From the IMG/VR virus record IMGVR_UViG_3300042890_005556: a stretch of DNA of 64,000 bases; one strand, 5' to 3'. Below are positions 7,925 to 55,820 of this stretch, one piece after another. The stretch is from a virus. Below the pieces are notes generated by a model. The model was not told the origin of the DNA and did not search any database. It saw nothing but the letters and a program-made list of their open reading frames with translations. Every line of letters starts with the position of its first letter. Position 1 is the first letter of the stretch. The translations under genes were made by a program, and so were the position numbers.

Positions 7925-7955
7925 TTGGTTTGTCCCTTTTAATCGTCTAATTTAA

Positions 7956-7961
7956 TATTTA
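7956..7961 (-). promoter_or_regulatory. Candidate late promoter core TAAATA
   Basis: About 32 nt upstream of the 7924 start. Confidence 0.4.
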
Positions 7962-7966
7962 ATTCA

Positions 7967-9817: not shown

Positions 9818-9870
9818 AGTATTAATCCTTCGAGTTGATTCATTGTATTCTTCCATTGTATTTTATTTTC

Positions 9871-26776: not shown

Positions 26777-28066
26777 TCAGGGAGTGAGACCGTGTGATAG
26801 GCAGACTAGTTTTATTTGGTCTCTAAAGTCATTTACTGATCTTATGGTGATTCCAAAGAATTCGGCCATGTGGTTGATTTTTGGGTCACCAGCTCCAAAT
26901 CTGTCGCTGAATGATTCATATACTTCACCGTTTTGGATCAGTATATCGTAAACTTGTTGACAAAGTCCCTTTGGCAGGGATTTCCGTATGGTAGACAAAG
27001 CATCTTCGGCTTCTATTACTGAAACGTGATCTTCCAAGATCATTTTCTGGCCCTCAACAAAGCGGTGGCCTATCTGGTCTAGAGTAGAACCACCTTCGTC
27101 CTCGGTGACACTTAGTTGATTGTCCAGAACAGTTACGTGTTCTGGGCGAATCACTACTGCTTCAAGCTCATCCTGACAAGAAGACTCATCCGTGATTTGG
27201 ATAGATATCGTATTGTTATCGATACCTAATAATACGCCATGTCTTATTGCTTTTTCTTTGATTTTAGAAAATTCAATAGAGAATTCTGGTGGCGTTTGCA
27301 TTCCTAAAATATGGAACGCATAGTGACTATCTTCCTTGGCACAATTGTAATCAATGTTCATCTGGGAGCATGTACTTGCTAGCTCTTCGGAGATGATGTA
27401 GTCTGGGCGACCGCTGATCAATTGTGGTACCTTTTTATGTTCTTGGCGTTTGTTTTCTTTTAAGTGTTGTCTGAAGTAATTCCAGGCGAATTCACCAAAG
27501 AATTTCTTGAGCTGCTTTGGGTCGTTGACGATTGCTTCTGGGTTCTCATATTTTCTCTCGCCAGGGATTGGCTGTATTGGCGATATGATTTTTGATCCTG
27601 AGTACCCTTCTGCTAGAAGCAAGCGGTAGTCGTCGTAGTCAATGAATGTTTTTTCGGTGGTGAGGTTGCCTTTTTCGGCTATTTTGACTTTATTACAGCT
27701 AGGGCAACATATGAGTTGCTGGTCTATGCTCTTGGCTTTACCTCTTTTTGTCAGATATTGTGTCTGCTGGCAACTTTCGCATTTAAATGTGTAGTCGCGG
27801 TGGTAAAAGAGGTTTATCACTCCGCGCCATATTGCTATCTGATATTCTAGCTCGGCTGCTGTAGAGTCGTCGGCGTAGTCTCCGCCAATTGTCACCCTGA
27901 ATTGTTTCATTATCTCTGCTCTATGTCTTACCATTTCTTTATGATTTGACACATATGTCACCATGTCATGCACTTTTTGTCGTTCGTCTTCTGAGATTTG
28001 CGACATGGTGATGTTTACCAATGAGCCTCTGAGATATAGCTTTGGCATTTGACGAACAATCGGCAT
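26777..28066 (-). CDS. Sigma70-family-like factor with zinc-ribbon insertion
   Basis: Region-2-like AELEYQIAIWRGV and FFGEFAWNYFRQHLK flank a CESC...CPSC insert; region-4-like ALSTIRKSLP..QQVYDIL...INHMAEFFGITIRSVNDFRDQIK (HTH); GGAGGT RBS. Confidence 0.6.
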   Translation of the reverse strand: MPIVRQMPKLYLRGSLVNITMSQISEDERQKVHDMVTYVSNHKEMVRHRAEIMKQFRVTIGGDYADDSTAAELEYQIAIWRGVINLFYHRDYTFKCESCQQTQYLTKRGKAKSIDQQLICCPSCNKVKIAEKGNLTTEKTFIDYDDYRLLLAEGYSGSKIISPIQPIPGERKYENPEAIVNDPKQLKKFFGEFAWNYFRQHLKENKRQEHKKVPQLISGRPDYIISEELASTCSQMNIDYNCAKEDSHYAFHILGMQTPPEFSIEFSKIKEKAIRHGVLLGIDNNTISIQITDESSCQDELEAVVIRPEHVTVLDNQLSVTEDEGGSTLDQIGHRFVEGQKMILEDHVSVIEAEDALSTIRKSLPKGLCQQVYDILIQNGEVYESFSDRFGAGDPKINHMAEFFGITIRSVNDFRDQIKLVCLSHGLTP

Positions 28067-28141
28067 TTGTTACCTCCATGGTTGTGTGATTACCACTGCC
28101 GTATTTTAGAACAGACAATCCTTTTTGGCAGGAGATCCGCC

Positions 28142-28903
28142 ATGGCTCAGTATTGCGACACGAAGAAACTCGAAAAGGTCTGGTTTAACTGGCTTCTATC
28201 CAAATCAGCACCCACGCTGGAGCCATACAGGAAAGCGGGTGTGTTGTGGACTAAAGCCATAGGTCTCGTCGATGTGAAGGGTGAGGTGATTGTCAAAGGT
28301 GGTAAGACCTTTAAAAGTCCTACACATCCTATCAGATCGCACTGTATCTTGTCAAGATATCCGTTCTTCTTTACCACTTTTAATGGTAAGCCACAAGAAC
28401 TTGCGTCCCAAATACATTATAACGAAGATGGTGATTATACGACAACCCCCATTGCACTTTCAGAGATAGAAATAGTAAAAACCAAGCCGGAAATAAAAGA
28501 CATAGAACAAATACTACTAAAAGATGGCTACATCCTAGATGCAGAAACAGGAAAAAGCTGGGAGTCCATGTTAATAGACATCAATAAAATGTGCCTCGGA
28601 ATAGCATCTAAATTCCATCAAAAAACAGCAGAAGAATTGAATGATTTAGCTAACGAAGCATTATTGCAAGTAGCTAACAAATTATCTACGGATAGGCTGG
28701 TATATACTCCCGGAAGGGCACCAGTATTCAATTTATTAACCACCACTATACATCGATGCATGTTTTCAATTATGAATAAAAGGAAAAATCAAAGAGAAGG
28801 GCTTAACAGATTACTGCAGGACGCACAATCTGGGTCATTACCTCAAACTAACAGAAGCCTGAGACTCCAAACATTCACGACGAGAAAACATGAAAATCGT
28901 TAG
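28142..28903 (+). CDS. T4 gp55-like late sigma factor with internal insertion
   Basis: YCDTKKLEKVWFNW, INKMCLGIASKF, NDLANEALLQVANKL, YTPGRAPVFNLLTTTIHRCMFSIMNKRK parallel the gp55 region-2-only pattern; ATG 28142 follows AGGAG. Confidence 0.65.
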   Translation: MAQYCDTKKLEKVWFNWLLSKSAPTLEPYRKAGVLWTKAIGLVDVKGEVIVKGGKTFKSPTHPIRSHCILSRYPFFFTTFNGKPQELASQIHYNEDGDYTTTPIALSEIEIVKTKPEIKDIEQILLKDGYILDAETGKSWESMLIDINKMCLGIASKFHQKTAEELNDLANEALLQVANKLSTDRLVYTPGRAPVFNLLTTTIHRCMFSIMNKRKNQREGLNRLLQDAQSGSLPQTNRSLRLQTFTTRKHENR

Positions 28904-29831
28904 TAACAAACACATTGTGCCAGCAGTAACAAAAAAACCAATAGACAATATTAAAATAGTTGTTAGTCCCCATAATAAAACTATAAGCACACTAAATGCT
29001 TATAATCAATCAGCCCATATGAAAGTAATCCCAGCACAAATAGCACCGCAGATCAAAAACAAAGCAGTCATTGATAAAAGCCTAGTAAAAAGAACTCAAA
29101 ACCCAAATAAACCAAAACCACCAGCATCGGTAACTTACGCTTCCGGCGAAGCACCAATCGAAAGCATACCAAAAATATACGGTATAAAAGACATAGGTAA
29201 AGGTAAGACATTAGTAGTCATAGCAAACGGCCCAAGTATAAACGAAGTTGAATTGGAGAGGCTAAAAGACAAGCCAGGCATCGACACTCTATCAATAAAC
29301 AGACCGGACCCACGGGTCTGGCCAACCACATATTGGTCATTTTACGACCAATCACAGCTTGTGCGACACGAAGACCTGTATAATTATTATGAAGGCATAA
29401 CCTTTCTAAGCACAGCCATCAAGAGAGACAAGGCCAGAAGCATAAAGTTTAAAAATTTTGGCAAAAAGCAATTTAGCAGAGACTTAACAAAGGGATTATG
29501 TATAGGACGCACAAGCTGCTATGCTGCTATGCAACTTGCTTTATGGATGGATTACGATAAGATATTCTTTTTTGGGGTTGATATGCACCCAGATGGTATT
29601 GACGGCAAGCTCCATTTCTACGGGACAAATCCCGACGTAGACCCTGATATTAGGAAAAAACGATTTAACTCAGAAGCAGAATACTTCGAATTTGCCGCAG
29701 ATAACATGGAATACCAAGAGAGAAAGAGATTTCACTTTTGTTCGTCTTACCTGACATGGCCCTTTAAATCGCGTTTCAATTACTTAGATCACAAGACTGC
29801 TATAGACGTGATTTTAGGGTCAATGCTATGA
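28890..29831 (+). CDS. Maf/DUF115-type glycosyltransferase-like protein
   Basis: VVIANGPSI, TLSINR, PTTYW.FYD, TSCYAAMQLALWMDYDKIFFFGVDM, HFY. Confidence 0.7.
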   Translation: MKIVSNKHIVPAVTKKPIDNIKIVVSPHNKTISTLNAYNQSAHMKVIPAQIAPQIKNKAVIDKSLVKRTQNPNKPKPPASVTYASGEAPIESIPKIYGIKDIGKGKTLVVIANGPSINEVELERLKDKPGIDTLSINRPDPRVWPTTYWSFYDQSQLVRHEDLYNYYEGITFLSTAIKRDKARSIKFKNFGKKQFSRDLTKGLCIGRTSCYAAMQLALWMDYDKIFFFGVDMHPDGIDGKLHFYGTNPDVDPDIRKKRFNSEAEYFEFAADNMEYQERKRFHFCSSYLTWPFKSRFNYLDHKTAIDVILGSML

Positions 29832-29840
29832 TTCAACCTA

Positions 29841-30227
29841 ATGTATTATAAAACCATGAGATACTACATAGCATCTAGTTTAGACAATGTTGCCAATGTT
29901 CGTAACGCCATTATGAGGCTGACCGAAGCTGGGTTTAGTGTCACACATGATTGGACAAGACATGGCAGAATCACAGACCCATCACAGTATCAAGCCATTG
30001 GCGAAGCAGAGTACCAAGGCGTGATTGATGCAGATTTCATCGTGTTTTTTATGCCGACTAGGTATGGAAGCCATGTTGAATTCGGTATAGCACTAGCCTC
30101 TAACAAACCGATTTATATGGTCACAAACGGCGTGGAATTTGAAGAAAAAACATTCTATCATCTACCATCCGTACATAGATACAGCGATTTAAATGAACTA
30201 TTGCGCGAATGGGGAATAGACAAATGA
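29841..30227 (+). CDS. Nucleoside 2-deoxyribosyltransferase / dNMP N-glycosidase-like protein
   Basis: YYIASS, THDWT, EYQGVIDADFIV, GSHVEFGIALASNKPIY (family catalytic Glu in G..xE.G.A). Confidence 0.8.
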   Translation: MYYKTMRYYIASSLDNVANVRNAIMRLTEAGFSVTHDWTRHGRITDPSQYQAIGEAEYQGVIDADFIVFFMPTRYGSHVEFGIALASNKPIYMVTNGVEFEEKTFYHLPSVHRYSDLNELLREWGIDK

Positions 30228-30928
30228 GTGGAAGCGTATCAACTAAGCTCGAATTAGACGTAATGCAAGTCAATGAATTGCTTGAAGCAAGCGAGCTAAT
30301 GTCCCAACATACGCTACCAGCCATGGTCATACATTCTGGCTTGGCCCCAGACGCTTACGCAGCACGGATGAGAGTCAGAGGCAGGTACAAGATAATCATC
30401 CCTATTGATTGGCCAAAAGGCGAAAATTTTTCTAACTTGAAATTCAGGGGACTAAGCAAGCAAGCACTGGAAGCTGATGGGTTCGAGATAATGGTCACGC
30501 CAGGTAAGACCCTTCTAGATACAAAAAATGAGATCAACGTTCTGACTGAATTCATCAGAAACTTCCTGGGGGAATATGTGGAGGTTCGGTTTGTAATAGG
30601 CAATACTATTAAAACCGACGAGGAAATTGAAGTAATATGCAATGCCTTGTTAGGTATGAGAAACCCCACATTGTTGCGTAGCGATACTATCTTGAAAGTA
30701 CAGCAAAATGTCATCAGCGCAGAGTCGCATCTAGCCTTTGTTAATAAGCTACGCGGCTTTGGTCTTCCCACACCTATAAAGCTATCGGGGAACATGAACA
30801 ACCTGAAATCTATCGCTTCAGCGCCAGCAGTTTTCAGGTATGCTGTCAATGTAACACAAGCCAAGAATATTATTCGAGAGATCTTGCAGCAGCCCAGTGA
30901 ATTGAAGGAAATCCTGTCCGACGTTTGA
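30224..30928 (+). CDS. DeoC (deoxyribose-phosphate aldolase)-fold protein, catalytically divergent
   Basis: PIDWPKG, ADGFEIMV, VRFVIG..IKTDEEI..IC, LLRSDT (Schiff-base Lys position reads Arg by my alignment), PIKLSGN; ATGA overlap with the upstream gene. Confidence 0.55.
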   Translation: MSGSVSTKLELDVMQVNELLEASELMSQHTLPAMVIHSGLAPDAYAARMRVRGRYKIIIPIDWPKGENFSNLKFRGLSKQALEADGFEIMVTPGKTLLDTKNEINVLTEFIRNFLGEYVEVRFVIGNTIKTDEEIEVICNALLGMRNPTLLRSDTILKVQQNVISAESHLAFVNKLRGFGLPTPIKLSGNMNNLKSIASAPAVFRYAVNVTQAKNIIREILQQPSELKEILSDV

Positions 30929-30938
30929 GAATGACAAT

Positions 30939-31328
30939 ATGATACACGATCATCTAATGGAAGCAATCAGGCAAGATGCCGACCTATTGACTAAATCCGA
31001 TGCGTGGCTCGAAGAAGAGAAGAATTACTTCACAGAGCAGATGCGCAAATCCATAGAAGAGCTAAAACCCATCCTCTTAGCTATAGCTATAAAACAAAAA
31101 TTGCAGCAGCAGAACATGGTGCCTAGGCAGAAGTTCATAAGAGGCAGCACAGGCCAGATAGAGAATGTTGTGATTGACTTCTGTAAGCTACCAGAAGCAC
31201 TGAGAGATATGCTCAATAACGGCAGAGATACCTTAGATCAGTTGATAGCAGCTGGCAATATTGCCACATGGCAGATAGACGGGTATGACGTTAATACCTG
31301 CCTCCAAACGGCACCGAAAGGGATATAA
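30939..31328 (+). CDS. Hypothetical protein translationally coupled to purZ
   Basis: 129 aa; TAATG overlap with the purZ start. Confidence 0.7.
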   Translation: MIHDHLMEAIRQDADLLTKSDAWLEEEKNYFTEQMRKSIEELKPILLAIAIKQKLQQQNMVPRQKFIRGSTGQIENVVIDFCKLPEALRDMLNNGRDTLDQLIAAGNIATWQIDGYDVNTCLQTAPKGI

Positions 31329-32428
31329 TGCAAAACGGCAAGCTCAATATAGTCACAGACGGACAGCACGGTAGCACAGGCAAGGGTCTAATCAACGCAT
31401 ATCTAGCCGATAAACACCGACCAGAAATACTCAGCACGACCAATATGGCCAACGCTGGCCACACCGCAGTCAACGAAAACGGCGAACCGTTCATAGCAAA
31501 AGCATTACCGTCATCAGCGGTCCTAAACAAATGGCGAGAGGGCTATAAACCGACAGTATTCGTAGGAGCTTCATCTGCTTTTGATCTGCAACAGCTACTA
31601 AAAGAATGGGAAGAATGCGACAAGCCATTCACACTAATCCATCAAAGAGCGGGTGTCATTACACAAGAGCAAAAAGAAAGAGAATCCGGAGCATCAGGCA
31701 CAAAGCACGTTGCTAGCACCATGCAAGGATGTGGAGCATTTCTAGCAGATAAAGTCATGCGAAGAACAGATTTAAAACTCGCTAGAGATTATGAAGAGCT
31801 TCAACAATTCATGGCCATCAAAGAAGCACATACATGGCTAAAGGCACAGCTCGAAAGCTACGGTACAATTCTCCATGAAGGAAGCCAAGGATTCAGCTTG
31901 GATATAAGCCACGGTAGTCACTATCCAGAGTGTACAAGCCGCAGCACCACTGCTATTCAAAACCTTGCTGACCTTGGTCTTAACCACAAGCAAGTTGGTG
32001 ATGTGTACGTGGTTTTCCGGCCATACCCGATCAGAGTCGGCAATGTCTATGAAAATGGGGTAGAAGTAGGCAACAGTGGTGGTTGTTATGGCGACAACCA
32101 AGAGACTACTTGGGAAGCAATAGCCGATGCTGCAGGTGCACCGCCAGAGATTAAAGCCAAGGAGCTTACAACTGTCACAAAGCGACTTCGAAGGGTCTTC
32201 ACGTTTAGCATGCAGCAAATCACCGAAGCTGCTGCAGCTAACGGTGCATCATATCTTGCGCTGAATTTTGCTAACTATATTGACTGGACTTGCTATGGCA
32301 CCAACGACAAGGCAAAATTGTCAAGCAAGATTTGGGATTTCATTCATTCAGTACAAGAGCAAACAGGCGTCAAGGTGGGGCTTGTTGGTACGGGTCCTCA
32401 GATAAACCACGTAATTGACCTAAGATGA
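31328..32428 (+). CDS. purZ: PurZ, N6-succino-2-amino-2'-deoxyadenylate synthase (Z-base pathway; PurA paralog)
   Basis: DGQHGSTGKG (Ser where PurA has Asp in GDEGKG), NMANAGHT, EGSQGFSL, YPECTSR, RPYPIRVG, ELTTVTKRLRRVFTFS, and LNFANY in place of PurA TKLD; short 366-aa length as in phage PurZ. Confidence 0.85.
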   Translation: MQNGKLNIVTDGQHGSTGKGLINAYLADKHRPEILSTTNMANAGHTAVNENGEPFIAKALPSSAVLNKWREGYKPTVFVGASSAFDLQQLLKEWEECDKPFTLIHQRAGVITQEQKERESGASGTKHVASTMQGCGAFLADKVMRRTDLKLARDYEELQQFMAIKEAHTWLKAQLESYGTILHEGSQGFSLDISHGSHYPECTSRSTTAIQNLADLGLNHKQVGDVYVVFRPYPIRVGNVYENGVEVGNSGGCYGDNQETTWEAIADAAGAPPEIKAKELTTVTKRLRRVFTFSMQQITEAAAANGASYLALNFANYIDWTCYGTNDKAKLSSKIWDFIHSVQEQTGVKVGLVGTGPQINHVIDLR

Positions 32429-33204
32429 TCAACCTATTCAAAGTCGCAATTTACACAGACGAAGCGGGGTCTACCCTCGCTTCGTCTAAGAGTATTATAT
32501 CAGAATTAAATATTCCAAATGTCATTTTTAGAAACGTAGACAATAGGAATATTCTAAAATATGACGAAACTCGAATAAAGGCTGTCCTCAAAGAGTTCGA
32601 GGATTTTACCGTAGCTGGTCTGTCGACAGATATCAGAATAGATGATATGTTGTCAGATGATCAGATTTTCGATTTACGGAAGAAGATTTACCTTATTAAA
32701 CCAGTATTTGTCAGATTCGGGTGGGCTGGAGAGAAATACTCTACGGAATTTATTGCTAGAATAATAGATATGAGTATAGAGAGCAATTTTATACCGGTTA
32801 TTGAGTATGAGCATACGCATTTTAATTCTCCAAAAATCATAAAGGCACAGGACTGGGTCAACCTTTTGTCATTATCGAAGCGATTGAGAGTGAATTTTGA
32901 TCCTGTTCAGTATCTTATGCGGGTAAGAACTGATCCTATAGAGACGGTTTATGTTCCGCTTAGGAATCAAGTGAGCGTGATCGATGTAAGAGATTATAAG
33001 ATTGGCGTTGGGGCTAAGACGATTGGTTACGGGTCTATTGATTGGGCTGCGTTGTTAAAGAGACTATATTCCGATAAATATAACGGTTGGTTGGCTATTA
33101 AGCCGTCTCTGGGTATCATGCATGGTGATACTCTTGGTAGAGAGATGGTTTTTTCCCATGCTTTCAGCAATTTCAAAGAAACATTGGAGGAAGCGTGTCA
33201 ATAA
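32425..33204 (+). CDS. Xylose-isomerase-like (AP endonuclease 2 family) TIM barrel, divergent
   Basis: AIYTDE, VIEYE, VNFDPVQY, IDVRD, IGYGSIDWAALLKRLYSDKYNGWLAIKP; several metal ligands appear replaced; ATGA overlap with purZ. Confidence 0.7.
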   Translation: MINLFKVAIYTDEAGSTLASSKSIISELNIPNVIFRNVDNRNILKYDETRIKAVLKEFEDFTVAGLSTDIRIDDMLSDDQIFDLRKKIYLIKPVFVRFGWAGEKYSTEFIARIIDMSIESNFIPVIEYEHTHFNSPKIIKAQDWVNLLSLSKRLRVNFDPVQYLMRVRTDPIETVYVPLRNQVSVIDVRDYKIGVGAKTIGYGSIDWAALLKRLYSDKYNGWLAIKPSLGIMHGDTLGREMVFSHAFSNFKETLEEACQ

Positions 33205-33410
33205 ATCTTAATGAGACGACAGCTGCTATTAGAAAAGCTGGAGCCGTCAATGTTCGCGTTGTCCCTATGAAGGGGCAAACAATCGATGGTGAGCACCAAA
33301 TTGAGATTCAGAACGTGCCAGGGACTTGGCAGACTATTTTGACTGGTATTAAAAAACCTATGGCTGAGAGCATCGTGCGTGACGCCACAAACAGGGTATT
33401 GTTAGGATAA
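33195..33410 (+). CDS. Hypothetical protein
   Basis: GTG start after GGAGG; 71 aa. Confidence 0.7.
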   Translation: MSINLNETTAAIRKAGAVNVRVVPMKGQTIDGEHQIEIQNVPGTWQTILTGIKKPMAESIVRDATNRVLLG

Positions 33411-33414
33411 CCTA

Positions 33415-33837
33415 ATGGCTGGCTCAGACGTATTCGAAGTCGCACGCTACAAAATCGGAGATGTGGCGTGGTGGGTGAATTTAACAGCCAAGGATGACCC
33501 ACAAGAAGTCCCTGAAAAAGACGAATGGATGAAAAAGCATCATCCTAAGGTCTTATTCGAACGCGGTTTATACAAGTCCCTGTGGAAGACGACTGCTGCT
33601 TTGCCTAAATTAGAGAAGACGGATTTTCTCAGTATAATGCATATATTGACGTGTGAGATGAAAATAAGCGAATTCATTGTCTCAAGTATCGCAAGAAGCA
33701 ACGATACCGGCGAATTCTTTTATTCTAACTTAAACACCGAATGGCTTCCAGAGTCCAGCATGTTTGACACTAAAGAGGCAGCTGCGAAGGAAAGAAAAAG
33801 GATCATAGGGTTGGTGAAAAAATGGTGTGATTCTTAA
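33415..33837 (+). CDS. Hypothetical protein
   Basis: 140 aa; YKIGDVAW and FDTKEAA resemble common small phage proteins. Confidence 0.7.
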   Translation: MAGSDVFEVARYKIGDVAWWVNLTAKDDPQEVPEKDEWMKKHHPKVLFERGLYKSLWKTTAALPKLEKTDFLSIMHILTCEMKISEFIVSSIARSNDTGEFFYSNLNTEWLPESSMFDTKEAAAKERKRIIGLVKKWCDS

Positions 33838-33874: not shown

Positions 33875-36800
33875 ATGGCAACAGATCCGTTTGCGAATAT
33901 AGGTTTTAGGGAAAACTTCTCCCAAGCTTACTACACAGAAATAATTATAGCTAGGAATAAAAAAAGCATAAGATTTGCTTCTTCCACTCCTACAGTAACA
34001 AACAGCTACCGCCAACTGATGGGTGGTAATTTATACAGAGTAGCGGAGTTACTAAGTATAACAGGACCAAAACAGCCCGTAGCCATAGAAAATAAACTAC
34101 AATATAAAAAAGACCAGCCATACTCACTCTATGATCAAGGCCAAATAAGCGACGAATTCAGAATACAAAACGTCGACCCTACCCTCTCGTTAGAGAACAG
34201 AGAAAGCTATTGGGCAAGAGTGAGTAGCCCATTAGGGAGAGAGTGGGCTGCCTACTACGCTGGAACAGATGCTAAAATAGGCTACCTCGCAAACTTCATA
34301 GACAGAAACTTAGATGACTTCACAGGCACTAATTTTGCAGGATTTGTATCTGGAACACTTAATAATGATAACGATAAGCCCAACCTATATGACACTGTTA
34401 AGATAGGAAACATATTCGGCTCCACAGTTCAAGGTAGCCAAACTGCATCTGTGTCTGTTGAGCCAGGCATGTACAAGAGCTTCATCTCGTGCAAAGTCAC
34501 ACAAGACACGAGATATTTTGACCCTACAGGCGCAGAAATAATCCAAACTGCTGAATCAGGTGATTTATTCGCCGACGAGTTCGTGTTAAACTTTTATATA
34601 TTCCCAGGTTATCACACATTTTATTATGGCTCTTGGAAGATAACAATCGAGCCGACTAATACGACAGGAACGCATAGGGTATTCATCCAGCATGCCAGAT
34701 ACTATACCTCTGCTGAATACAATATGCAGCCAATTGTGAGGAAATTTAGTGCAGACTTTGATTGGGATGGGACTTTAAGCGAGTTTAATCTTATAACTAT
34801 TAAGTACCTGTTCACTCCAAGACCTCAGGGGAGTGCGTCGACTGGCACAATTAACATTGGTAATTCTACTAGTAAAGTTAGTCTATTTGTAAATGCTGTT
34901 CCTGTCTTCGCAAGTGGTAGTGATTCGATATGGCCCCCATCTTATCCAAAAGTCTACCGTGGTTCAAGCGGTGCGGGATTGCCTAGTTATACACAGAAAC
35001 CATATATTGACCTAAAGATGGCCCCAGATAACACGCCTGTCTTCATAGTATGGGATAATGCAGTACCTTTCGGGATCACAAAAAGCGAGTTTGCATTTAT
35101 TCTTATAACTGATAAGTTAGTGGATCTTAAAGGTCTTTATACTCACCTCATTAGATTCGAAAGGATAATGCCTAATCTCACAATTGAGACGACCCCTAAC
35201 CCAGTTGTTCCTCCAACACCCCCAGTAGGCGGTATTACTTCGAAATTTTACAACAGGGCTACTTATAGTCTTGCCCCAGCGGTCTTGATGGAATTAAACA
35301 AGATACTCTTAGATTTCATGTTGTCCCAGCCAAATATTAGGATCTCTAGCGGGCCACTTGAATCAGATCCAATTCTTAATAGAATGCTAGCCGCCGCAAG
35401 CACCACCAAAAAATATTCATCAGCGATAGAATCTGACAAGAACGTTTTAGATCTCTTAAGAGAGCCAGTCTTGGTAGTAGATGATACGAATTCACTTCTA
35501 CCATATATCTTGCTAGAATATGGACTGCCCAATGACAACGTCGGGCAACTACGAGTTAAAATAACAGAAATAAAATCACCAAATGTAATCGATGAAGTAT
35601 CATCAGAAATTGAGCTACAGGGCTACGCAGAGTATATTATTAAAACCATTACCACAGACAGCTGGACAGCTGGCACGGTGACGTTGTCTACGAATTTCAG
35701 ATTTTATGTCGATGATAGTGGAATGTACGAGCCAAAATTAGATCCGTATATCGTCAACAATCCTAATCAGCTGACTCTTAATGAGTTTGGACAAGTATAT
35801 GTTGAGAGTATGCGCGTTACTTGGGCTTTTCCAAGGGACGTGAACAGTCCTTTTGTTATTCCAGATAGCTTTTTTACTAGGTATAACAGGGTGGTGGATG
35901 TAGTAACCCAGGAAGTTGAAATAGCGAAGCTCTTTGATACGGAGAGAGACTTATTACCAAATGGGTTGCCGGTCGATCTAAATATGTCTAATAAGCCGGG
36001 CACGACCCCTCCAATACCACCTAACCCTGGAACAACTCCAACACTATATTATAATCGAGCTGAATGGAGTGTACAGCCTGCTAAGGAAGCGGAAATAGAA
36101 GAAGTCCTAAAACAATTCATGATTAGTAATCAAGTGATAACTAGCGCGGATTCGCGTTTTAGAAATATATTGAATACCGCTTTGTTGACTGATTATAGAG
36201 TGATCAGAACATTCGAAATGTCATTAGGGTTTGGAGAACAGATTCTTGATGTAGTTGATACACCTCTTGCTACTAGTAGTAATGAAGTTGAAATATTTTA
36301 TGCACCAACTGATTCAACTTTTGTTGATCATTCAAAAACTAGCGGGGTGCAATTACGCGCCAGAATACCAATAAATGACCCTAATAGAAATAATTCTCAA
36401 ATTGACCTATCTAGCACAGCTAAATTTACCTTCGACATACCAGCAAATTTCGACAGTCCATCTGGTGATCTGTCCGAATATGGTGCTGGGACCATTGAAA
36501 TATTCGTAGATTTTGTTTTGAGGCAGGCAGATGTTGCGAGACCGGATATCGGCAGTGCTAACCCTTATATCGTTGGGAATAACAACGAATTTATACTTAG
36601 CTCATCTTACAGATTGGGAGCGTTACGCGCTACTATTACTGCTGATATCGGTTTAGGTACTGATTTCATTGACGAGTTTGATATTAATTTAGAACCAATA
36701 AAACTCGATCAGTTCGGGGCTGGAACTTTAGTGGACATAACGCCTTTCATTACTGGTGGTGTTCCAGTTTCCATAAATATGTCAAATGCTCCAGGCACAG

Positions 36801-39800
36801 TCGGAATTGGTGTGCCAGGTGGTACACCATTACCGCCATCTGGTGGGTCATTATCACCATCCAAGAATTATACCGCAACATTCACCCTGGCAGACCAGCC
36901 ATTTAAAATATTCGAGATAGACAATTTAAAAGGGCTGTTAAATTTTTACAGTTTCCAAGACACTCTAAACTACACATTATATGATCTTCTTCTAACCCCA
37001 TATTCTCAGAAAGTACCCATTTCGAGATACGCGTCTGACGTTTTCAAGCTAGCCCTAATCGAACAGGGTAAGATACCTGGACACCCATCAGATCAGACTG
37101 CAGGATTTTTAAAAGCGTATACTGCCTATTTTAATGACCAGGATTGTGTGCTACCGGAAGGCAGTCCGCTAGACCCCTCTTGCCAGGCATTGACCATTGA
37201 ATATATCATAGCACCTAAAGAGACGAATAAGGTATTAACATTAGGCACAAATCTCCTGAAAATGGGCATGGTTATTAATCTAGGGTGTAATGGTGGTGCC
37301 AATTGCGTTGTTGTTAGCGGCAAACAGATTCCTAGAGTGAATGGTGTGCCTACGGCCCAGTTAAGTTATGATTTTACCATGGAGATGATAGTAACAGAAG
37401 ACACATCAGGTGTGACGCCACCGACGAGTCCAAGTATAATCGTGACATATAATCTTTCAGGGCCCATAGCGCTCTGGGGTTTTTTAATAGGACAATACTC
37501 TCTTATTAATGTTTCTAGATACACTGGTGGTGCATACAATAAAGTCATAGCGTATGATGAAGCGACTATGAAATCAGGCACAAATTTTCTAGTAAAAGCT
37601 TTCGGCACCGATTCACCACTATATGAAGCCGGTAACATAGCGCCAATTAAATTGTCTGCTAGAGGGAAGAGGCTTTGGGGTTCCGATCCGGACGATTTTA
37701 CTAATGACTACACACAAATCGACTTTTTTGTGACAGCTTACATAGACACAAGATTTACAAAAACACTAACTGGCTCGTTAATTAGTGACCTAGATGCTCC
37801 CAATACAACACGAGCAGCAATAGTTTATGTGATAGAGCCTGTAACCGTACCATTTCCAAGATTCGACGGCACGATAGTTCCCTCTAAAAAATTACCAACA
37901 GTTACCTATACTGATTACACTAATGTATTAATGACCAAGCGTTTTCCCTCTGACGGCGGAGACGGCGGAGACGGCGGAGACGGCGGAGATACGACGGTCA
38001 AGAAGTACAACGGTAAATGGAATTTGGGTCCAGATTTCATTAGAGCTATAGAAAACACATACATCGAATTTCTGCAAGTACCCACATTTAATTGGCGACT
38101 TGACAATGTGGCGTCAAAGGGCTTAGGAAGCTATGATAAGCTTTTGTGGGAATTAGTAAGTGGAGGTGTCAATCCAATCGTCAATAACTGGCAGACTGCC
38201 GGATACCCAACTGGAGTTGGTCTGCAAAGACCAATAGACTCTAGATCCGTCCAATATTGGATGGAAGACGTATTAAAATACAACGGCGTCGGAACCGGAC
38301 CGACCGGAGCACCAGTCACACTAGCTTACTCATCCAGCTTCCAAGGATCTAATTTAAAATTAACAGTTTATATGAATATAGCAGTTAGAGACATAAGATT
38401 AGAAGCTGAAAAGTCAACTAGTGTAACATTGGACATCTCTAACATAATAGGCGAGTTGTCTGAAGGTGGAATAAATAAAACCTATCTGTTTGCGAATAGA
38501 AGTACTTCATTTACCATATTAGTAGACGTATACGAAGCGATGCAAACATTCAGTGCTCCGCAAGAAATGATGCTCGCACAGACAGTTCCCGACAGTTACA
38601 TCTGGCAGCCACCCAAATACATTATAGTAAACAGTGACAGCCTCAAATACAATGATGGCCTAAACGACGTATACTACTTCAGAGACGGCTACCAAACCGC
38701 TCTAAGACAGACCTACTCATTCGTTGGCACAAGAACATCACAAAACGACGTAATAGCAACATATAGGCACGGCGATGCCAGCTCATACGACCCAGAAACT
38801 ACAAACTACGACGTAGTGGTTGGCGGCTTCGACTTGGTATACCATAAAGGCACACCCAACACTCTAACTTTACTACCGATCGAAATAATAGAGTCTAAAA
38901 CCAAAAAGAAATTTGTGTGCTTTGGCAGCATCAGAGAAGTAGGAAATATATTAAACGCCTCAATAAAATCAAACGTTGTGATGACATTCATAACAGATAA
39001 CGGATCGACATCCGACACAGACGGAGCATACTGGGTATACGACAATACCTGGAAAGAGTGGTCACATACAATTCCGATCAATACCGGCGATGAGCTAAAC
39101 TTATACTGCTACAGCTGTCTCACTAATCAGGTTGGTACGCTAGAAACCAACATCAATATAATCACCAAATTCAACGTTAAACCAACTCCCAATAACCCAC
39201 CGCCATCAGTAGATCCCACCGAAATATTCCCAGCAGAATTTTCTTACGACCAATTAATCCAAAAAGTACCGGCACTACCAGTTGTATACCCCCCAGGCTT
39301 CCCAAATCCATCAGTATATCGGTTTGAATACCCTAAAACGATGGCAGTAAAGGCCAAAAGCTCAACAGATACATATGAGTTCTTTCTAGAATCTATTGAC
39401 AGCACACAACGCATTGCTACTTATAAGCTGTATGAATTCGTGAACAACGAACTGACGGTAGGTGGTTTTACTGTAGAATACACACCACACGTATCATTCA
39501 AGCTAAGTAAAGTAGACGTGTACTCAGCAGATTTAGATAGAGATTTTGAATGCTTTGGAGTAATACACATAATCTATGACAATGACGGTGCATTATTGTC
39601 GGCTGATACGTGGGAAATAATACCCACATTTGAAGACCCTAATGATTTCGCTAACTGGTATTTGACTGTCGTACAAGACCCGTTGACTGGTGGTAACCAT
39701 TTTAACACTTATTGCAACGATGGCACAAATTTTAAATGCTCAGCAAATAACTTGAAATTCGTGATGCGTATAGACGCGAATTTTAAGCATTATGCTCCAG

Positions 39801-42800
39801 AACCTCCAGCAATCATTGTCGCTCCACCCGTATCAGGTCCGCCAATACCATTGCCCATATACAGCACCGGTTATAACGTTGCTTCAGACAGGCAGATTGC
39901 ATTCATTGGTGAGCCTGATAGTAACTGGAAAATCACCAGTTTTATTACGGGTCCAGAAACTGCTCCTACACATTATTGGAAACTAAATAATGGCTTAACT
40001 GATAGTGTGGGTGACTTACCATTTGTAGCACATCCAGCTATGAGAGTTGAACAGGGACAAAGCCGACCGCGATTCGCACGCATCGCAGATTTCACCTACG
40101 GGGTGGGTGCTGTTTGGTCGAATATACAGACGCAAACGACTCCTGAGAATGCTATTTATCCTAATAATCCTGGAGTAGTCAGTGGCAGTACTACTATAGG
40201 AAAAGGCATAGAACACGGTTTATATGCTTATGTGGCTTCACAGACCTCAAACCGAATTTTGGATTCAAATGCTTGGACGATAACTGGATGGCTAAAAATG
40301 CCTATTAAACCATATGTCGCCAATATAGACAATGCTGGCGGCATATTAGAAGAAATGGTATTTAGTATTTCCCCATTCACACCTTTGCCACTTCAGCCCC
40401 CATCAGTAACCAGTTCATATGTCTTTGGTCCTGAACTCATTGTCGGTAGTGCCCCTAGGATATCAGTTTATGTGATCTACGCTTTTAGAGACTCAACACC
40501 TGCTGAGGTGTATGGTGAAAGATTCTTTAAGAAAGCCGGCCATATTTATGTTTATTTTAAATCAACCCGCACCAGCGAACCGACTTACGCAGGAAAAGAG
40601 ACTGGGCTGAATGCAGTATTAGTAGATGAGGCTGGTGACATCATCTATAGGGATTTATTAACAGGAGACATAGCGTCTGAAGAGGGTACTACATCAAGAG
40701 CCTGTAATTTCCTTGAAATACCTGGACCAGATCTAATAAGAGCGAATGTCTGGTCATTTATATCAATAAAAAAACAAGAAGCATTTGATGACAGGCTGAT
40801 AATAAGTATAAATGGCCGAGATTACACAGCGATATTTCAGTCTGCCATCGTCACAGATGAGCTGTTAAAGAAAGTTAATTTCATCCAGGCAATGGCCCCG
40901 CTAGACGATTTAAGAACATACGACTCAGAGCTCTCAGACTTAGAATTAAAACTGATATCGCGAGTCGGTAGCGCAGAAGGCGGGGTAGTACCACGAGAAT
41001 ACAGCCCCGGTGGAGTGGTATCAGGGGTCATATCAAGCCAAGTTTTTGCTTACGACCACTTTAACCCTTCAGAAGAGATCCAGCCATACTGGTGGCCAGC
41101 CGGATATACCTCTGGTAGCACCATCGTGCCAGATCGCACAAACCTCTACCAACAATACAATGCAAGATGGGTGTCGCCACCGCCTAAGCTGGGCATTGAC
41201 GCATCACCAGTAGCAAAATCCTTCCATTACGCCACCGAATTTGATCTTACAGGTATTACTCTCAATACAGTCAAGATATCGTTTCTATGCTCTGGTGACG
41301 ATAGAATAGTTGATATAATTGTTAACGGCACGAGCACAGGCTATAACAACATCTCAGAGATCGGCGGGCTGCCAGCTACTAATACGACAGCATATGACAA
41401 CTTAAGGTACAGGAACCTATGGGACGTGAAGCTACCGACCGGTAGTGGCCATCTCTTCGTTCAAACAATTAATACGATCGATATAGTGGTAGAAAACCAA
41501 GCTATCACAGATCTTTCAGTGGCTACTAACCCAACTGGGTTATACGTGTACGTTTACGAGAAGACCGGTGTTCCATTACCCATACTGGAAGACCCAAGAG
41601 CAATCATTTTAGACATAGTCGATACTGGCCACAATAAGATATTGAATCAACCAATACCTATAGGTTCGTCAGATAGCAATTGGGTGATAGAAAAAGTAGA
41701 AAGATCAGAAACCGCTCCTTCTCACTATTGGAAGTTTAATAATAGCCTAAATGATCTTGCTCCAGCTGTTGGCTCAACACCATTACCATTTGCGCAATAC
41801 CTGGTACAGTCTACTTTTAAAGCTGGTGTGGTAGTCGGTAATGCTGGAAATCCGCAAAACACCGGGGTAGTTCAGAACGCAGTATTTCCTTTTATTCCTG
41901 GTTCACCAACTTCTGAATATGGCAAGCACATCCTTGTTATATCTGAAGGAGGTACAAATAGTAAGCTCATTAATTCATCAGTAGGCTGGACGATTACCGG
42001 CTGGATTAAAATTCCATTATACGATGGATCAATACCGTCACTCGCGGAATTAACAACAATATCTGCTATTTCTCTTGACGTCTTTGCTGCTAACACGCCT
42101 ACCATGAAGTTTAAGTTTTGTTACTTTGGTGCTGGCAATAGAAAAACAGGAGCTCTCTATTTAGACTTTACTTATGGCGAATTGGATAGTAACAGAGCTA
42201 TGACAATACCTGACCAATCCACCAACTTCATCGAGATAATACCGAATCAAGGGGCGTTCTCTCAGAACGAATGGGTTTTCTTTTCAATACGCAGAACTCC
42301 ACGGACTACCGCTCCTTCTGGAGCTATATCTGATGGCACAATAATATTAACAATCAACGGTATTGATTACACTATTAAAGAACCATATATCCCAGGAGCC
42401 AGCTCGACTTTCGACACTATGAGCTGGATTGATTTTAGTTGCCCGGCAGATGATCTAAGAATATACGGAAATAAGGTACTGTCTAACTCTGAACTTAAAT
42501 TCATTTCCAAATACGATTTCACATCAATTATACCCGGTGAAAATGACCACGCCACTGCGGAAGGTGTACCGAGAGAATACTTGAACACATACATTACCGC
42601 GCCTTCCCCCGTCTTCGCCTACGATTACGTAAACCAATACAGCCCAGCACAACCATACTGGTGGCCACAAGCAGTTCCCAACCAAGCCTCACTCTACGGA
42701 GAATACAAAGCACGATGGGTATCGCCACCATCAACCACAGGCATTAACATAAGCAGATTAGAAAACACAGGATTCCACTACTATAAAACAACATTCAACC

Positions 42801-45800
42801 TAGCGAATATCGACCTAGAAACAGTAAAAATATCATTCCTCTGCTCTGGTGACGACCAAATATCCGACATAATAGTCAACGGAAAAAGCACAGGCTACAA
42901 CAATCTATCGCAAGTAGGAGGGCTGCCAGGGAGCGACTCAGCATACCAAAATTCAAGATTCCGAAACCTATGGGATGTAAAACTGCCAGTAGGAAAAACA
43001 CACCTTTACGTTCAAACAATCAACACGCTCACCATAGTAGTACAGAATAAAAACCTAGAAGACACAATAGCAATATCAAATCCAACAGGATTATACGTGC
43101 ACTTCTACGAGAAAAAAGGAATCCCAGTCCCTGCACAGCCAATAATCGACCCAATATTATTCACAATCAGCCAACAACTATATAAAGACCCGACAGTAAT
43201 ACCAATAGACCCAGAACCAATAGTCTTGCCCAAGCCAGCACCACGCCCAGTAGACTTAACAAGATCCAGTAAATGTCTGGAACTAGCAGCCTACAGCTAC
43301 TTCGCGCTTGGACCAGTCAACACCACCAAATTAACCACATTTAACAGAGCGTCAAACATATGGGCATTCGCAACGACAAATAAGCCCAACGCCTTTGGAC
43401 AAAATAGAAACAGATATGGATTCACTACGTCAGATGCAGTATGGGTAAGGCCAACCACAGAGCCAAATACCTGCAAATACCAGCTAAATTGCAGAGACAC
43501 ACAATCAGCAACGATGGCTAAAAACAACGTAATATACCGCACAATCACAGCGCCAGCTGATACCTGGATCACAATAGGCTGGAGACAAGAAACCCCACTG
43601 CCCGGCTTCAGACTAGCCGGTGATACGGTGGGAATAAAGGTAGCCACAGTCATAAAATCAGCGGTAGGTCCTGACCACATAAAAGTGACCACAGACACGC
43701 AGACCGTATTCGGAATGCCAACAAAGCGTGTAATACCACCATGCTACACTGCGGTCGCTGAATACAATAAGACAATTGTCAGTATAGAAATCATAATCTA
43801 TTCTACAGGCATAGTTTACGAAAACTTCATAGACGACATAGTCATCGAATACGGACCAGGGTACTGCGACGAAATAAATTGCATTGATACATTCACCGGC
43901 ACTGACGCTATCCTGAAATATACCGGAATGTCTCGTGAATTGGTATCAAAAGACAGCACTGAAGCTAAACTTATCCAGTACGGCCCGACAGAACTTAACT
44001 TTGGATCACGCTACTACATTAACGCTGGTGTCACTGCATCCCAGACTATAGAGCTTGGCGGATTCCTAAATAAAAACGCCAAAGTGAGCATATCAATATC
44101 GGGGTACAGCGCTACTAAAACAAACGGCGTAACCGTAAGATTAGAGACATTTGATGAAAACATGCAACCACTCGAATTATTCACTGAAAACCTAGGAGTA
44201 ACGAATCCTGGCAGCTTCTACACGACAGATACATTCGACAATGCAAGCCAAGTAAACCTGTTAACCACCAGCAAATTCGTGCTGGGACAAGCTGCCAGAA
44301 TTATAAAAGTGCTGGTCACGTCACAGCTCAATAAGTTCTACCTTGGCTTCATTGATGTCTGTACAGACCAAGACGTGACATTTATAAAAACACCGCCAAC
44401 ACTTGATTGCAAAGGCAATGTTAATAAGCTTCGAGTGCTGCTGAATGTAAATGGTGTTCCACGTGAAGAAGTGAACATCTTCCAAGCTTTCTGCCGATAC
44501 ACGGTACTGACCAACACTACCTACAGAACACAGCAAATCGTTGAAACCACTTCGACTGCTGATGGAAGAACCGGCACAGCGCTTCCAACTAAATGCGATG
44601 ATGCAGCACTCTGCAATTATTGGAAGCAACAGGGTGTGAATGACACGGTGGATCAGTTGATTCTGACAAGGACCATCACAGATAACGACGCTGCTGTCGA
44701 CATATCAAGAATAGCATCTGGCTCTTATAACCTTCTGACAGGTATTGATAACTGGATATGGGCATCACCACTTAATAGAGGTTTTGGTCCAGACCAGTAT
44801 ATTTTGCAATTCCCAGATACACAGAATAAAGTCGCAGAAGACAATTATGTAGAATCACTTGAAATATTCCTATCTGCCAATAGAGCCCAAGTGAGCAACG
44901 CAACATGCTTGCCAGCCATAGGTTTAGCATACAAATTCGCAGATTTCATCACAGTTAGCTCTACTTCGGCAATTCTACCAATTAGCATACCAAAATTGAA
45001 TGTAGAGAATCCAACCACTCTACGATTCGACAGAGTATCACTGAATAAGATTGGAAGCATAACGACAGCTAACTATGTTCTTGCGAGAAGAACATGTAGT
45101 GATAAATTCGTCTTAACCGGAGGATTCACAGTAGAGCATCATCCAGAAAATGGCGAGTATTTCGTCATCAAAGCATACGACTGGTCTAAGTCACCAAACA
45201 CTCTGCTAGGAGTAGTTGACAGCTGCCGTAACATCCTTGATTACAGCACGCTCTTCACCTTAGGATCACTAACGACAGCCAATAATCTTGCTGCGAATGA
45301 CACCACCAGGACCGCATTCTTCTTTAAACCAACTAATAACGCTTATTCCAGCACTGGCCCGAATAACACACAATTCTTTGAGTTGTTGGTCCCACAGTCC
45401 TCACAATTCGACATATTCTCAGCCAACAACAATACTAACAGTGTGCCAGTTACATTAGTAATTGATAAAGCTAATGTCCAGAGCTATGAGATATCTGCTA
45501 CATTTACTTGGGACAATACTTCTGGTGAGATAATAACAGATCTTACGGGAGAAAGCGATTGCAAAGACCCGGCAGACGCGATATCAGTAACAATCGAATA
45601 CATCAACGCTGTTGGTGCAAAGAAGAGGTTCACCAGAGAAATACCTTTAACAGAATTGAATACCATAGAAGAGACAAATACAGAAGACTGGAACGCGCTA
45701 CGGGCATTCGGTAATGGGCTTAAAGGTGATTACGCGACATGGGCATCCACAAAGTTTGAGCTCGATAAGCCGTATGGAGGCGGGTTGGATCAATGTCTTC

Positions 45801-47674: not shown

Positions 47675-48240
47675 TATTCGGAACGTGTAATGTCCAATAT
47701 GATGGTAGAGCTACGAGCACACTTATTGATGGGAAGTACCTCATCATCATTAAGAGTGATGGTAGCCTCATAATTCATGATAGTAAGATGCTAAAGCCTA
47801 AGAACTATATAGGCCCAAAGGCTAGAATCTCTATGGTCGGCAATCAGATTATTGCTGAGTGTAAGAAGGAGAAGATTATTATAAATCTGTTAGAAGCTGA
47901 AAGCTTGCATTTAGCTGGCTGGGAAAATAAGAATATTGAGTTGACACGAACTGAGTTTGAGTTGCGTGATAAGCTCACTGAGAATATTGAATGGTACTTG
48001 GGCGTTGTGCCGGTTAAGGTGGAGAAGGAGTTTAAGACGAAGTATGGTGTTATTGATCTTTTGGTGGTGGATGATTGTGAGGTTACGCATATTATTGAGG
48101 TGAAGAGGGATAAGGCTTCTGTTTCTGCTTGTTCTCAGCTTTATAGGTATTATCAGAATCTAGGTGCTGCTAGGGTGATGGGTTATATTGCTTCGCCTAG
48201 GATCACTGAAAGTGCTATGATGTTTTTGGAGGAGTATGGG

Positions 48241-49944
<1,704 letters not shown>

Positions 49945-54478: not shown

Positions 54479-55288
54479 ATGGGCAAACTGGTACAGCCAA
54501 AAGTCTACCACGTTGGGTACACAGAAGTAGACACAGATACCATACTAGAATATCTTAAAGATAGCGGGAATCTAGACTTCTATGAAAGCATCAAAGAAGC
54601 CAAAGCGATTGGAATAAGTAACGCAGAAGTACTTTGCAGCCTCTACGCTAAACTCTGTTATAAGAGCCTTACATTAGGGCAAAACCAAAACATAACAAGA
54701 GTGAGAGACATCAAAGACAACCTCATAGGTTGTTTTCATACAGGTCACGGAAGCATATTCGAGCATATTAACTTTAATTTTATAATCACAGATTGTAGCA
54801 GAATATTCACACACGAATTGATAAGACATAGGCCAGGTATGGCTTATTCACAAAATAGCGGGCGATATATTAGAATAGACGAAATTGATATAGTATTTGA
54901 TCCAATCTTAGAGCCAGTAAAAGACGACGTAGAAGAAATAATCGAATATCTAGAACACAAGTACAGAATAATGGAGCAAAAGCTAGACTTGAATAATATC
55001 AAGGACTTTGCTACTAAAAAAGAAATGACATCCGCATTACGAAGACTTGCACCAAATGGTCAATCTAACGAAATAGGGGTTACAGCAAACCTCAGATCCC
55101 TCCGCCATATTATCATGCTTAGGACCAGCAGGCATGCTGAATGGGAGATAAGAGTAATATTCGAACAGATCTATAACATAATGAAGAGCAAATACCCGTT
55201 GATGTTTGCTGACGCGAAAGAAGAGATCGTTAAGGGAATCATAGAAGTCACCGGAATGAGGATGCAGCCTTATGAAAATAGTATTTGA
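54479..55288 (+). CDS. thyX: FAD-dependent thymidylate synthase
   Basis: GHGSIFEH, SRIFTHELIRHR...SQNSGRY, N.RSL.H..MLR...AEWEIR. Confidence 0.95.
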   Translation: MGKLVQPKVYHVGYTEVDTDTILEYLKDSGNLDFYESIKEAKAIGISNAEVLCSLYAKLCYKSLTLGQNQNITRVRDIKDNLIGCFHTGHGSIFEHINFNFIITDCSRIFTHELIRHRPGMAYSQNSGRYIRIDEIDIVFDPILEPVKDDVEEIIEYLEHKYRIMEQKLDLNNIKDFATKKEMTSALRRLAPNGQSNEIGVTANLRSLRHIIMLRTSRHAEWEIRVIFEQIYNIMKSKYPLMFADAKEEIVKGIIEVTGMRMQPYENSI

Positions 55289-55820
55289 ACGCCTACCAAG
55301 AAACAACAACCCAATACCGAGCTACGCGACGCAAGGGAGCGCAGCTTTTGATCTAAGCACATGCCTTAGAAGATCCTGCAGACAATTTCTGGCAGGAAGG
55401 GGTACTATCAATTTCAGATGTACTACAGACGGCGGAAGGCGTGATAGCGATGAAGAAGGCAACTTAAGAGAGATAGGAAATTGTGATATCCCGGTGTTAA
55501 GGATTAACCCAGGTGAAATAATTCTAATACCGACTGGATTCAAGACCTCTTTCGTAAACGCCGTATTGAAGATATTTGTGAGATCTTCAATCAGCTTGGA
55601 TGGTCTTCAGCTAGCCAATAATGTCGGTATCATAGATTCAGACTATAGGGGTGAATTGTTCTTAGCATTTAAGAATACCAGTGATAAAGTGAAAAACATA
55701 TCTGATAACTACAGGATGGCACAAGGTATTCTTGAACCGCTTGAACAGTGCATCATAGAAGAAGGTACCGTCGACATTACTGTCAGAGGTGCTGGTGGGT
55801 TTGGTTCCACTAACGAATAA
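55272..55820 (+). CDS. dut: Trimeric dUTPase
   Basis: GSAAFDL, RSS, GIIDSDYRGE, RMAQG, RGAGGFGST (motifs 1-5). Confidence 0.93.
   Translation: MKIVFERLPRNNNPIPSYATQGSAAFDLSTCLRRSCRQFLAGRGTINFRCTTDGGRRDSDEEGNLREIGNCDIPVLRINPGEIILIPTGFKTSFVNAVLKIFVRSSISLDGLQLANNVGIIDSDYRGELFLAFKNTSDKVKNISDNYRMAQGILEPLEQCIIEEGTVDITVRGAGGFGSTNE

Follow-up and report, generated by a model that had tools for sequence, protein, structure and literature searches.

The 64,000-nucleotide stretch of the viral record IMGVR_UViG_3300042890_005556 (the window, meaning the whole of the DNA analysed) encodes a PurZ-type 2-amino-adenylosuccinate synthetase in a coupled gene run that also specifies an NDT-family protein (2'-deoxynucleoside 5'-monophosphate N-glycosidase-like) and two divergent TIM barrels. 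The reading preferred here, whose chances are put at about even, is that a clade of DnaE-encoding jumbo phages combines an ATP-type PurZ pathway to the base Z (2-aminoadenine) with an adenine sink of the DutZ/DmtZ type, perhaps backed by a deaminase. The clade is uncultured, and DNA matches to the window come from lake and freshwater metagenomes of many studies, with no RNA datasets among the listed carriers. A search with purZ returned 13 IMG/VR loci of 54-62% identity on contigs of up to 356 kb, and no cultured phage exceeded 40% identity to the window PurZ. Statements that reach beyond the window rest on the genomes of relatives, five of which are near-complete (G001, G011, G012, G013 and G014; 354-408 kb).

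The PurZ of the window matches the PDB entries 7ODX and 6FKO with an E value of 1e-40. Residue mapping based on the positions named by Czernecki et al. (PMC8342488) revealed that 24 of the 27 substrate-pocket positions of S-2L PurZ agree with S-2L or phiVC8. The catalytic Asp13 of PurA is replaced by Ser16, which corresponds to Ser23 of S-2L and Ser14 of phiVC8 and is invariant in the clade. The dGMP pocket is kept, including Val237 (the ribose gate, Val241), Arg236, Gln187, Thr131 and Arg145, as is the PurZ loop insertion. The ATP-selecting residues Asn313, Phe314, Asn316, Gly356 and Pro357 (NFAN motif) are also present, and PurZ0 differs at these positions. The deviations are the replacement of Gly130 by Ala, a variable residue at the Tyr203 position, and Arg286 at the position of PurA Arg303. 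Judged from these residues, the window PurZ should work like an ATP-type PurZ, as a divergent branch instead of a cutoff-level member of the family, and synthetase activity is considered highly probable.

Other synthetases were encountered in and around the clade. A far more divergent PurZ-like branch, 31-35% identical to the window PurZ, occupies the same gene block in several relatives (L102:7938-9122, L122:7569-8804, L123:7223-8494, L124:7255-8472 and L125:7305-8456), suggesting either replacement or fast divergence in place. In one relative, purZ is a 1212-amino-acid open reading frame (ORF) with both end motifs intact (L069:8094-11732), which probably carries intein insertions. The closest cultured synthetase, from Bacillus phage vB_BpsS-140 (L039:7956-9077), shows 40% identity, is of the Ser type and has the same NFAN motif; this phage has no annotated datZ nearby, strongly avoids GC-only 4-mers, and offers a culturable proxy for the question of Z in DNA. 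An unrelated 214-kb phage, G026, encodes a very divergent adenylosuccinate-synthetase homolog that keeps the Asp (GDESKG; L171:1279-2409).

Regarding the canonical helpers of Z phages, no homolog of DatZ, MazZ or DUF550 was found in the window, as the initial annotation had stated, and datZ or mazZ genes elsewhere, which it had named as counting against its proposal, did not turn up in the relatives searched. HD_3/DatZ was absent from all five near-complete relatives, with the S-2L, phiVC8 and Bhz20 controls positive, and DUF550 was likewise found in none of the five. DUF5664 was detected in none of four near-complete relatives by Pfam and not in G001 by phmmer, and S-2L MazZ and MazG, searched for in G001 and the partial genomes, had no match in G001. 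The polymerase check in relatives revealed a split DnaE and a mini PolA instead of a DpoZ family-A replicase: among the five relatives searched (G001-G005), DnaE is encoded in pieces in all five and a 400-amino-acid mini PolA is present in four, while phmmer with three DpoZ sequences gave no match in G001 or the window. The mini family-A polymerase (L055-L058; about 254.9-256.0 kb in G001) is conserved, has rewritten motifs and accompanies the split DnaE; it could have a role in the synthesis or repair of Z-DNA.

If adenine is replaced by Z, A-containing restriction sites should show relaxed avoidance. Among palindromes of six bases that have a single A:T pair in each half-site, the median ratio of observed to expected counts was 0.86 for the clade (n=12; 0.84 in the window), 0.89 for the phages with purZ (n=5) and 0.51 for the controls (n=9; Mann-Whitney p 0.004 for the clade and p 0.019 for the purZ phages). 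GC-only palindromes were similarly avoided in all groups (in the window, 6 seen versus 24 expected), and neither this avoidance (p 0.5-0.9) nor 4-mers separated Z phages from controls. The pattern lends weak support to a modified adenine. The presence of Z in the phage DNA is held to be somewhat more probable than its absence. A purZ-less sister genome was not found as a clean control, G022 and G023 being 25% fragments and G026 being distant with an Asp-type synthetase.

The initial annotation had described six plus-strand ORFs joined by overlaps or a 10-base-pair gap; their coordinates and junctions were reproduced, and the only correction is that the run is longer. The genes of the run and its context are as follows (dN/dS, ratio of nonsynonymous to synonymous substitution rates).

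26777..28066, minus strand: conserved zinc-ribbon ORF, divergently transcribed, part of the core block by clade conservation
28049..28903, plus strand: conserved ORF heading the coupled run, no family match
28890..29831, plus strand: MptE-like/DUF115 protein directly upstream in the same block (PF01973, E 3e-5; conserved order)
29856..30227, plus strand: NDT-family protein (2'-deoxynucleoside 5'-monophosphate N-glycosidase-like), 123 amino acids, or 128 from the ATG at 29841 (PF05014, E 6e-6)
30224..30928, plus strand: DeoC/DERA-fold TIM barrel, 234 amino acids, first ATG at 30209 (AF2 model with Foldseek/VIA)
30939..31328, plus strand: conserved protein with no assigned family, 129 amino acids, in most clade loci, dN/dS 0.04
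31328..32428, plus strand: PurZ-type 2-amino-adenylosuccinate synthetase, 366 amino acids (PF00709, E 3e-29; NF038379; 7ODX/6FKO)
32425..33204, plus strand: xylose-isomerase-like (AP_endonuc_2) TIM barrel, 259 amino acids (PF01261, E 6e-7)
33195..33410, plus strand: conserved protein with no assigned family, 71 amino acids, GTG start, clade-wide, dN/dS 0.04
33415..33837, plus strand: conserved protein in the coupled run, beyond the six genes first described, 140 amino acids, 0 nonsynonymous versus 32 synonymous changes
54479..55288, plus strand: ThyX thymidylate synthase, given as context (PF02511, E 5e-37)
55272..55820, plus strand: accessory dUTPase coupled to thyX (PF00692; tree)

The NDT and DeoC-fold genes share an ATGA overlap, followed by a gap of 10 base pairs to the 129-amino-acid ORF, which enters purZ through a TAATG overlap; purZ and the xylose-isomerase-like gene again share an ATGA overlap, and the latter overlaps the 71-amino-acid ORF by 10 base pairs. 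On the upstream side, the ORF at 28049-28903 overlaps the MptE-like gene, which lies 9 base pairs from the NDT gene, and downstream a gap of 4 base pairs leads to the ORF at 33415-33837. Measured against L138, a close relative, the NDT-like gene has a dN/dS of 0.17 and the remaining five genes have values of 0.04-0.065; the six ORFs are real, translationally coupled genes under purifying selection. The 129-amino-acid ORF had no family or atlas match, PHROGs named only PurZ, and a promoter and terminator scan stayed near chance level. Across the clade, the gene order is SbcC, a 180-amino-acid ORF, the zinc-ribbon ORF (reverse), the 28049-28903 ORF, MptE-like, NDT, DeoC-like, the 129-amino-acid ORF, purZ, the xylose-isomerase-like barrel, and the 71- and 140-amino-acid ORFs. 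As this order is kept clade-wide as a 12-gene core block, adjacency to purZ reflects core gene order and is not specific evidence for a pathway. The linkage of NDT and purZ is weakened as an argument: all five near-complete genomes retain the NDT gene, but the linkage is that of the core block, the gene has moved or is missing from the block in some relatives while both barrels stay, and members of its subfamily often occur where there is no purZ.

DmtZ, described in 2026 from the phages Ghobes and Wayne, releases adenine from dAMP by hydrolysis and passes deoxyribose-5-phosphate on to Z, with the dUTPase-fold protein DutZ as its partner; its features are a triad of Tyr6, the nucleophile Glu103 and Asn77, an Asp12 proposed to confer adenine specificity, and a Pro57 for transferase-type water exclusion (PMC12884076). 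A dA-preferring NDT has also been reported from Z-enriched contigs (bioRxiv 2025.10.22.683976). The initial annotation had presented excision of adenine from dAMP, or exchange of A for Z, as an undescribed route; dAMP hydrolysis and A-to-Z exchange by an NDT-family enzyme had already been published as DmtZ. The NDT-like protein of the window has its best PDB matches in the NMP glycosidases BcmB and MilB (E 1e-5) and aligns with Ghobes DmtZ at about 20% identity (hhalign E 4e-4). Numbered from the ATG at 29856, its triad Tyr4/Glu52/Glu75 is invariant in the clade, the nucleophile is intact and the phosphate pocket is of the hydrolase type. The 5'-OH-binding Asp of nucleoside transferases is missing, which, in view of the DmtZ study (PMC12884076), would fit a monophosphate substrate. 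The context of DmtZ is not reproduced, with no dUTPase near the block and a synthetase that is not PurZ0; the NDT tree leaves the position of DmtZ without resolution, and tblastn found no relatives of the protein in cultured phages. The NDT-like protein is, by its sequence, homologous to DmtZ but not a DmtZ ortholog, and is a candidate DmtZ analog. Its substrate specificity is not readable from the sequence; that it acts on dAMP is given an even chance.

As DmtZ needs dAMP, a DutZ-type gene was looked for. A core gene with the dUTPase fold is present in all five near-complete genomes and in G002 and G020, and adjoins a gene resembling thymidylate kinase at all six loci that were inspected; a second dUTPase occurs in four of the five. 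In a tree of 21 sequences the core copy groups weakly with DutZ (90/86); its best phage matches are mixed, and it can be regarded as a lead for DutZ on sequence grounds. The core loci (L044:1459-1893, L045:1495-2118 on the minus strand, and L128-L131; 109809-110432 in G001) show an altered motif III and a small conserved ORF nearby. The thyX-coupled dUTPase of the window (55272..55820) was also considered for this role; it groups with E. coli Dut and is coupled to thyX, and is probably not DutZ. An adenosine-deaminase-family gene, a candidate adenine sink, is found in the five near-complete genomes and three partial ones (G002, G005 and G020), but is almost missing from cultured phages, with matches in only 7 of 50,697 phage records, at 22-25% identity. 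The metal and catalytic motifs of the deaminase are intact where they were recovered, fully for G001 and G005 and in part for G002, G012 and G013. The enzyme (81785-82708 in G001; L022:5785-6708, plus strand) has Gly where bacterial adenosine deaminase has Asp after HxH, a change that may allow a 5'-phosphorylated substrate.

Several observations weigh against the preferred combination of a PurZ pathway and a DutZ/DmtZ-like sink. The clade is known here from genes alone, and both the Dut-like gene and the deaminase gene come from relatives, neither being present in the window. The tree that groups the core dUTPase-fold copy with DutZ has long branches and thin sampling. In the palindrome analysis, a ratio test was not significant (p 0.08), the statistic was picked after a first look at the data, the clade genomes are related to one another, hosts differ, and the control G026 scores 0.91, like the clade. 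The window PurZ scores 234 bits against NF038379, under the cutoff of 300 bits, although this is its best-scoring model, and the PurZ tree puts the clade on a branch of its own within an open polytomy that also takes in PurZ, PurZ0 and BpsS-140. Arg286 occupies the position of PurA Arg303, which contacts the ribose 2'-OH (PMC8342488) and is Leu in S-2L. These properties of PurZ, together with the failure of phmmer to find DpoZ, would suit a PurZ-like enzyme in a phage without a full Z genome, acting in partial substitution, on a ribonucleotide (GMP) as substrate, or to supply a Z nucleotide that serves some other end. This would explain the missing helpers; however, the Val ribose gate and the PurZ loop insertion are kept, phiVC8 is likewise basic at the Arg303 position (Lys267), and the palindrome pattern resembles that of purZ phages. 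An incomplete Z system appears quite improbable.

On the side of the NDT-like protein, several DmtZ residues are not conserved. Glu52 stands in 32 of 32 sequences at the equivalent of Asn77 (aligned to the Wayne Asn, with the spacing of Ghobes Asn77 to the nucleophile matched), Pro57 is missing, with Val29 there when counted from the shared Trp, and the Asp12 equivalent, Asp10 in the window, is found in 14 of 32 clade sequences and is mostly Glu in purZ-less relatives. The invariant residues also occur in 25 NDTs from loci without nearby purZ, and the dN/dS of the gene is the highest of the run. Moreover, the gene is relocated beside SbcC in L074 and L063 and gone from the block in L119 and L120, which are fragments. 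It may be that Z-DNA is present and that the NDT is a generic house-cleaning dNMP hydrolase of the core block, adenine being kept out through the core Dut-like enzyme, through deaminase action on dATP or dAMP, or through selectivity of DnaE or the mini PolA. The absence of any conserved DmtZ specificity residue and the mobility of the gene agree with this, as do the conserved mini PolA, the occurrence of deaminase and Dut-like genes in all five near-complete genomes, and a subfamily of 6267 representatives at 50% clustering with many purZ-less viral contexts, among them a MazG fusion and a thymidylate synthase neighbor. In contrast, no near-complete genome lacks the NDT gene, G004 keeps it although it has moved there, and adenine-preferring NDT enzymes have been found twice in Z phages; a generic role is judged unlikely.

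The initial annotation had proposed two divergent TIM barrels, and both folds were confirmed. The AF2 model of the DeoC-like barrel (pLDDT 90) superposes on the deoxyribose-phosphate aldolase (DERA) 1n7k with a VIA Z score of 20.9 and a root-mean-square deviation of 2.8 over 208 residues; DERAs rank 1-6 in the fold search, and the next non-DERA has a Z score of 15.7. Sequence-profile comparison with PDB and E. coli DeoC, as well as Pfam, returned nothing, leaving the fold search as the link. By strand order and motif, not by superposed coordinates, Asp16, Asp102, Lys137, Lys167 and Lys201 of E. coli DeoC correspond to Asp12, Glu88, Arg122, Arg152 and Lys186, all but Asp12 being found in 48 of 48 homologs. 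Lys167 of DERA cannot be exchanged without loss of function (PMC6244999). Its replacement by an invariant Arg152, in agreement with the early impression that the Schiff-base Lys is lost, indicates that the DeoC-like protein is not a normal aldolase. Compared with DERA/DeoC (1n7k, 6d33), the fold, the equivalents of Asp16, Asp102 (as Glu) and Lys201, and the glycine phosphate loop are shared, whereas Lys137 and Lys167 are both invariant Arg, identity is 10-14% and no Pfam or profile match exists. The fixed basic active site and the partly kept phosphate loop suggest that the protein may bind a sugar phosphate.

The DeoC-like gene adjoins purZ in all 23 viral loci and was found only there. The initial annotation had the DeoC-fold protein bind the sugar phosphate; in a strong version of that proposal, the NDT and DeoC-fold proteins would be a catalytic pair in which the barrel degrades deoxyribose-5-phosphate derived from dAMP, through a Schiff base on Lys186 or a non-covalent mechanism. 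Coupling of the two genes in most loci, the proximity of the barrel to DERA, and the retention of Asp12, Glu88, Lys186 and Gly189 and of a strand-8 loop resembling that of DERA, at a dN/dS of 0.04, speak for such a pair; against it, the essential Lys167 is Arg throughout, purZ keeps the barrel at loci that the NDT gene has left (L108, L119 and L120), and genes intervene in L122-L125. A catalytic pair is regarded as very improbable. The second barrel is xylose-isomerase-like and faster-evolving, with a VIA Z score of 23.2 and a root-mean-square deviation of 2.9 over 239 residues to 3p6l. Enzymes of PF01261 have a conserved Glu/Asp/His/Glu metal site. This site is partly kept, Asp159 and Asp190 being invariant, while the two Glu positions vary (in the window the last of them holds Lys) and Asp stands in for the His.

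In the preferred PurZ pathway with a DutZ/DmtZ-like sink, PurZ would join aspartate to dGMP with ATP to generate dSMP, and host PurB and kinases would complete dZTP. The clade-core dUTPase-fold enzyme, acting like DutZ, would produce dAMP from dATP and dGMP from dGTP. The NDT-like protein would then cleave dAMP to adenine and deoxyribose-5-phosphate via a covalent intermediate on Glu75, and may pass the sugar phosphate to free Z. The clade-core deaminase could act on the released adenine or on (d)A nucleotides, blocking salvage and feeding the GMP branch. The DeoC-fold protein is not a Schiff-base aldolase, and most likely serves in non-covalent sugar-phosphate binding or other chemistry. The pathway would resemble DmtZ/DutZ without DmtZ membership, and its central mechanistic idea is already known. 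The most extended form, in which Z replaces adenine throughout the clade, a split DnaE copies it, a dUTPase-fold dATPase, an independently recruited NDT and a deaminase form a sink of three enzymes with no earlier description as a set, and the Arg-type DERA barrel is a new enzyme or regulator, is tentative and rather doubtful.

Further features of the window lie outside the block. A 4599-amino-acid ORF follows it immediately (33875-47674), with large variable ORFs at the same site in relatives, and is a probable virion or adhesion protein. A NucS/EndoMS mismatch endonuclease (47659-48294) is clade-conserved and of possible relevance to a modified-base genome, and a volactin-like actin homolog (15069-16508; PF25216, E 3e-37) is kept in G001. 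On the reverse strand are an ORF that carries Pro/Ala/Ser/Thr repeats in tandem as well as a long stretch of poly-Gln (48241-49944) and two paralogous proteins with cadherin-like and RCC1-like repeats recognized by eye (5723-9856). The sole long non-coding stretch, at 9857-10742, is flanked by divergent genes.

The Z genomes known so far measure 40-70 kb and belong to phages that have DpoZ or PrimPol; in published work, ATP-type PurZ goes together with DatZ/MazZ, and PurZ0 with DutZ/DmtZ. If the proposal is true, the clade breaks both pairings by joining an ATP-type PurZ to a sink of the NDT/dUTPase type, in jumbo genomes whose replicase is of family C. It would then represent another independent assembly of a Z pathway, and a source of Z-DNA-copying DnaE and nucleotide-pool enzymes for making Z-DNA. 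Compared with the Z-cluster of S-2L, phiVC8 and Acinetobacter phages (7ODX, 6FM1; PMC8342488), the dGMP and ATP active site of the window PurZ is near-identical, whereas the protein has 36-38% identity, its own branch and a score under the NF038379 cutoff, and datZ, DUF550 and DpoZ were not found in the complete relatives of the clade. With BcmB, MilB and DNPH1/Rcl (PF05014), of which the first two are the nearest solved relatives, the NDT-like protein shares the Tyr-acid-Glu triad and the lack of the Asp that binds the nucleoside 5'-OH; it differs in having Glu as the triad acid and its own W-x-x-H and F-Y motifs, common to a large uncharacterized subfamily. With the DmtZ/DutZ system, the clade shares the absence of datZ and mazZ, an NDT with Tyr and nucleophile Glu near the synthetase, Asp at the Asp12 position in the window, and a dUTPase-fold candidate in the genomes of relatives. 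Its synthetase is of the ATP type instead of PurZ0, and its NDT, about 20% identical with Glu for Asn77 and no Pro57, is neither beside nor fused to a dUTPase. The clade also adds the DERA-like and xylose-isomerase-like barrels and the deaminase, and stands with genomes of 350-400 kb and DnaE in contrast to the DmtZ phages of 45 kb with DpoZ.

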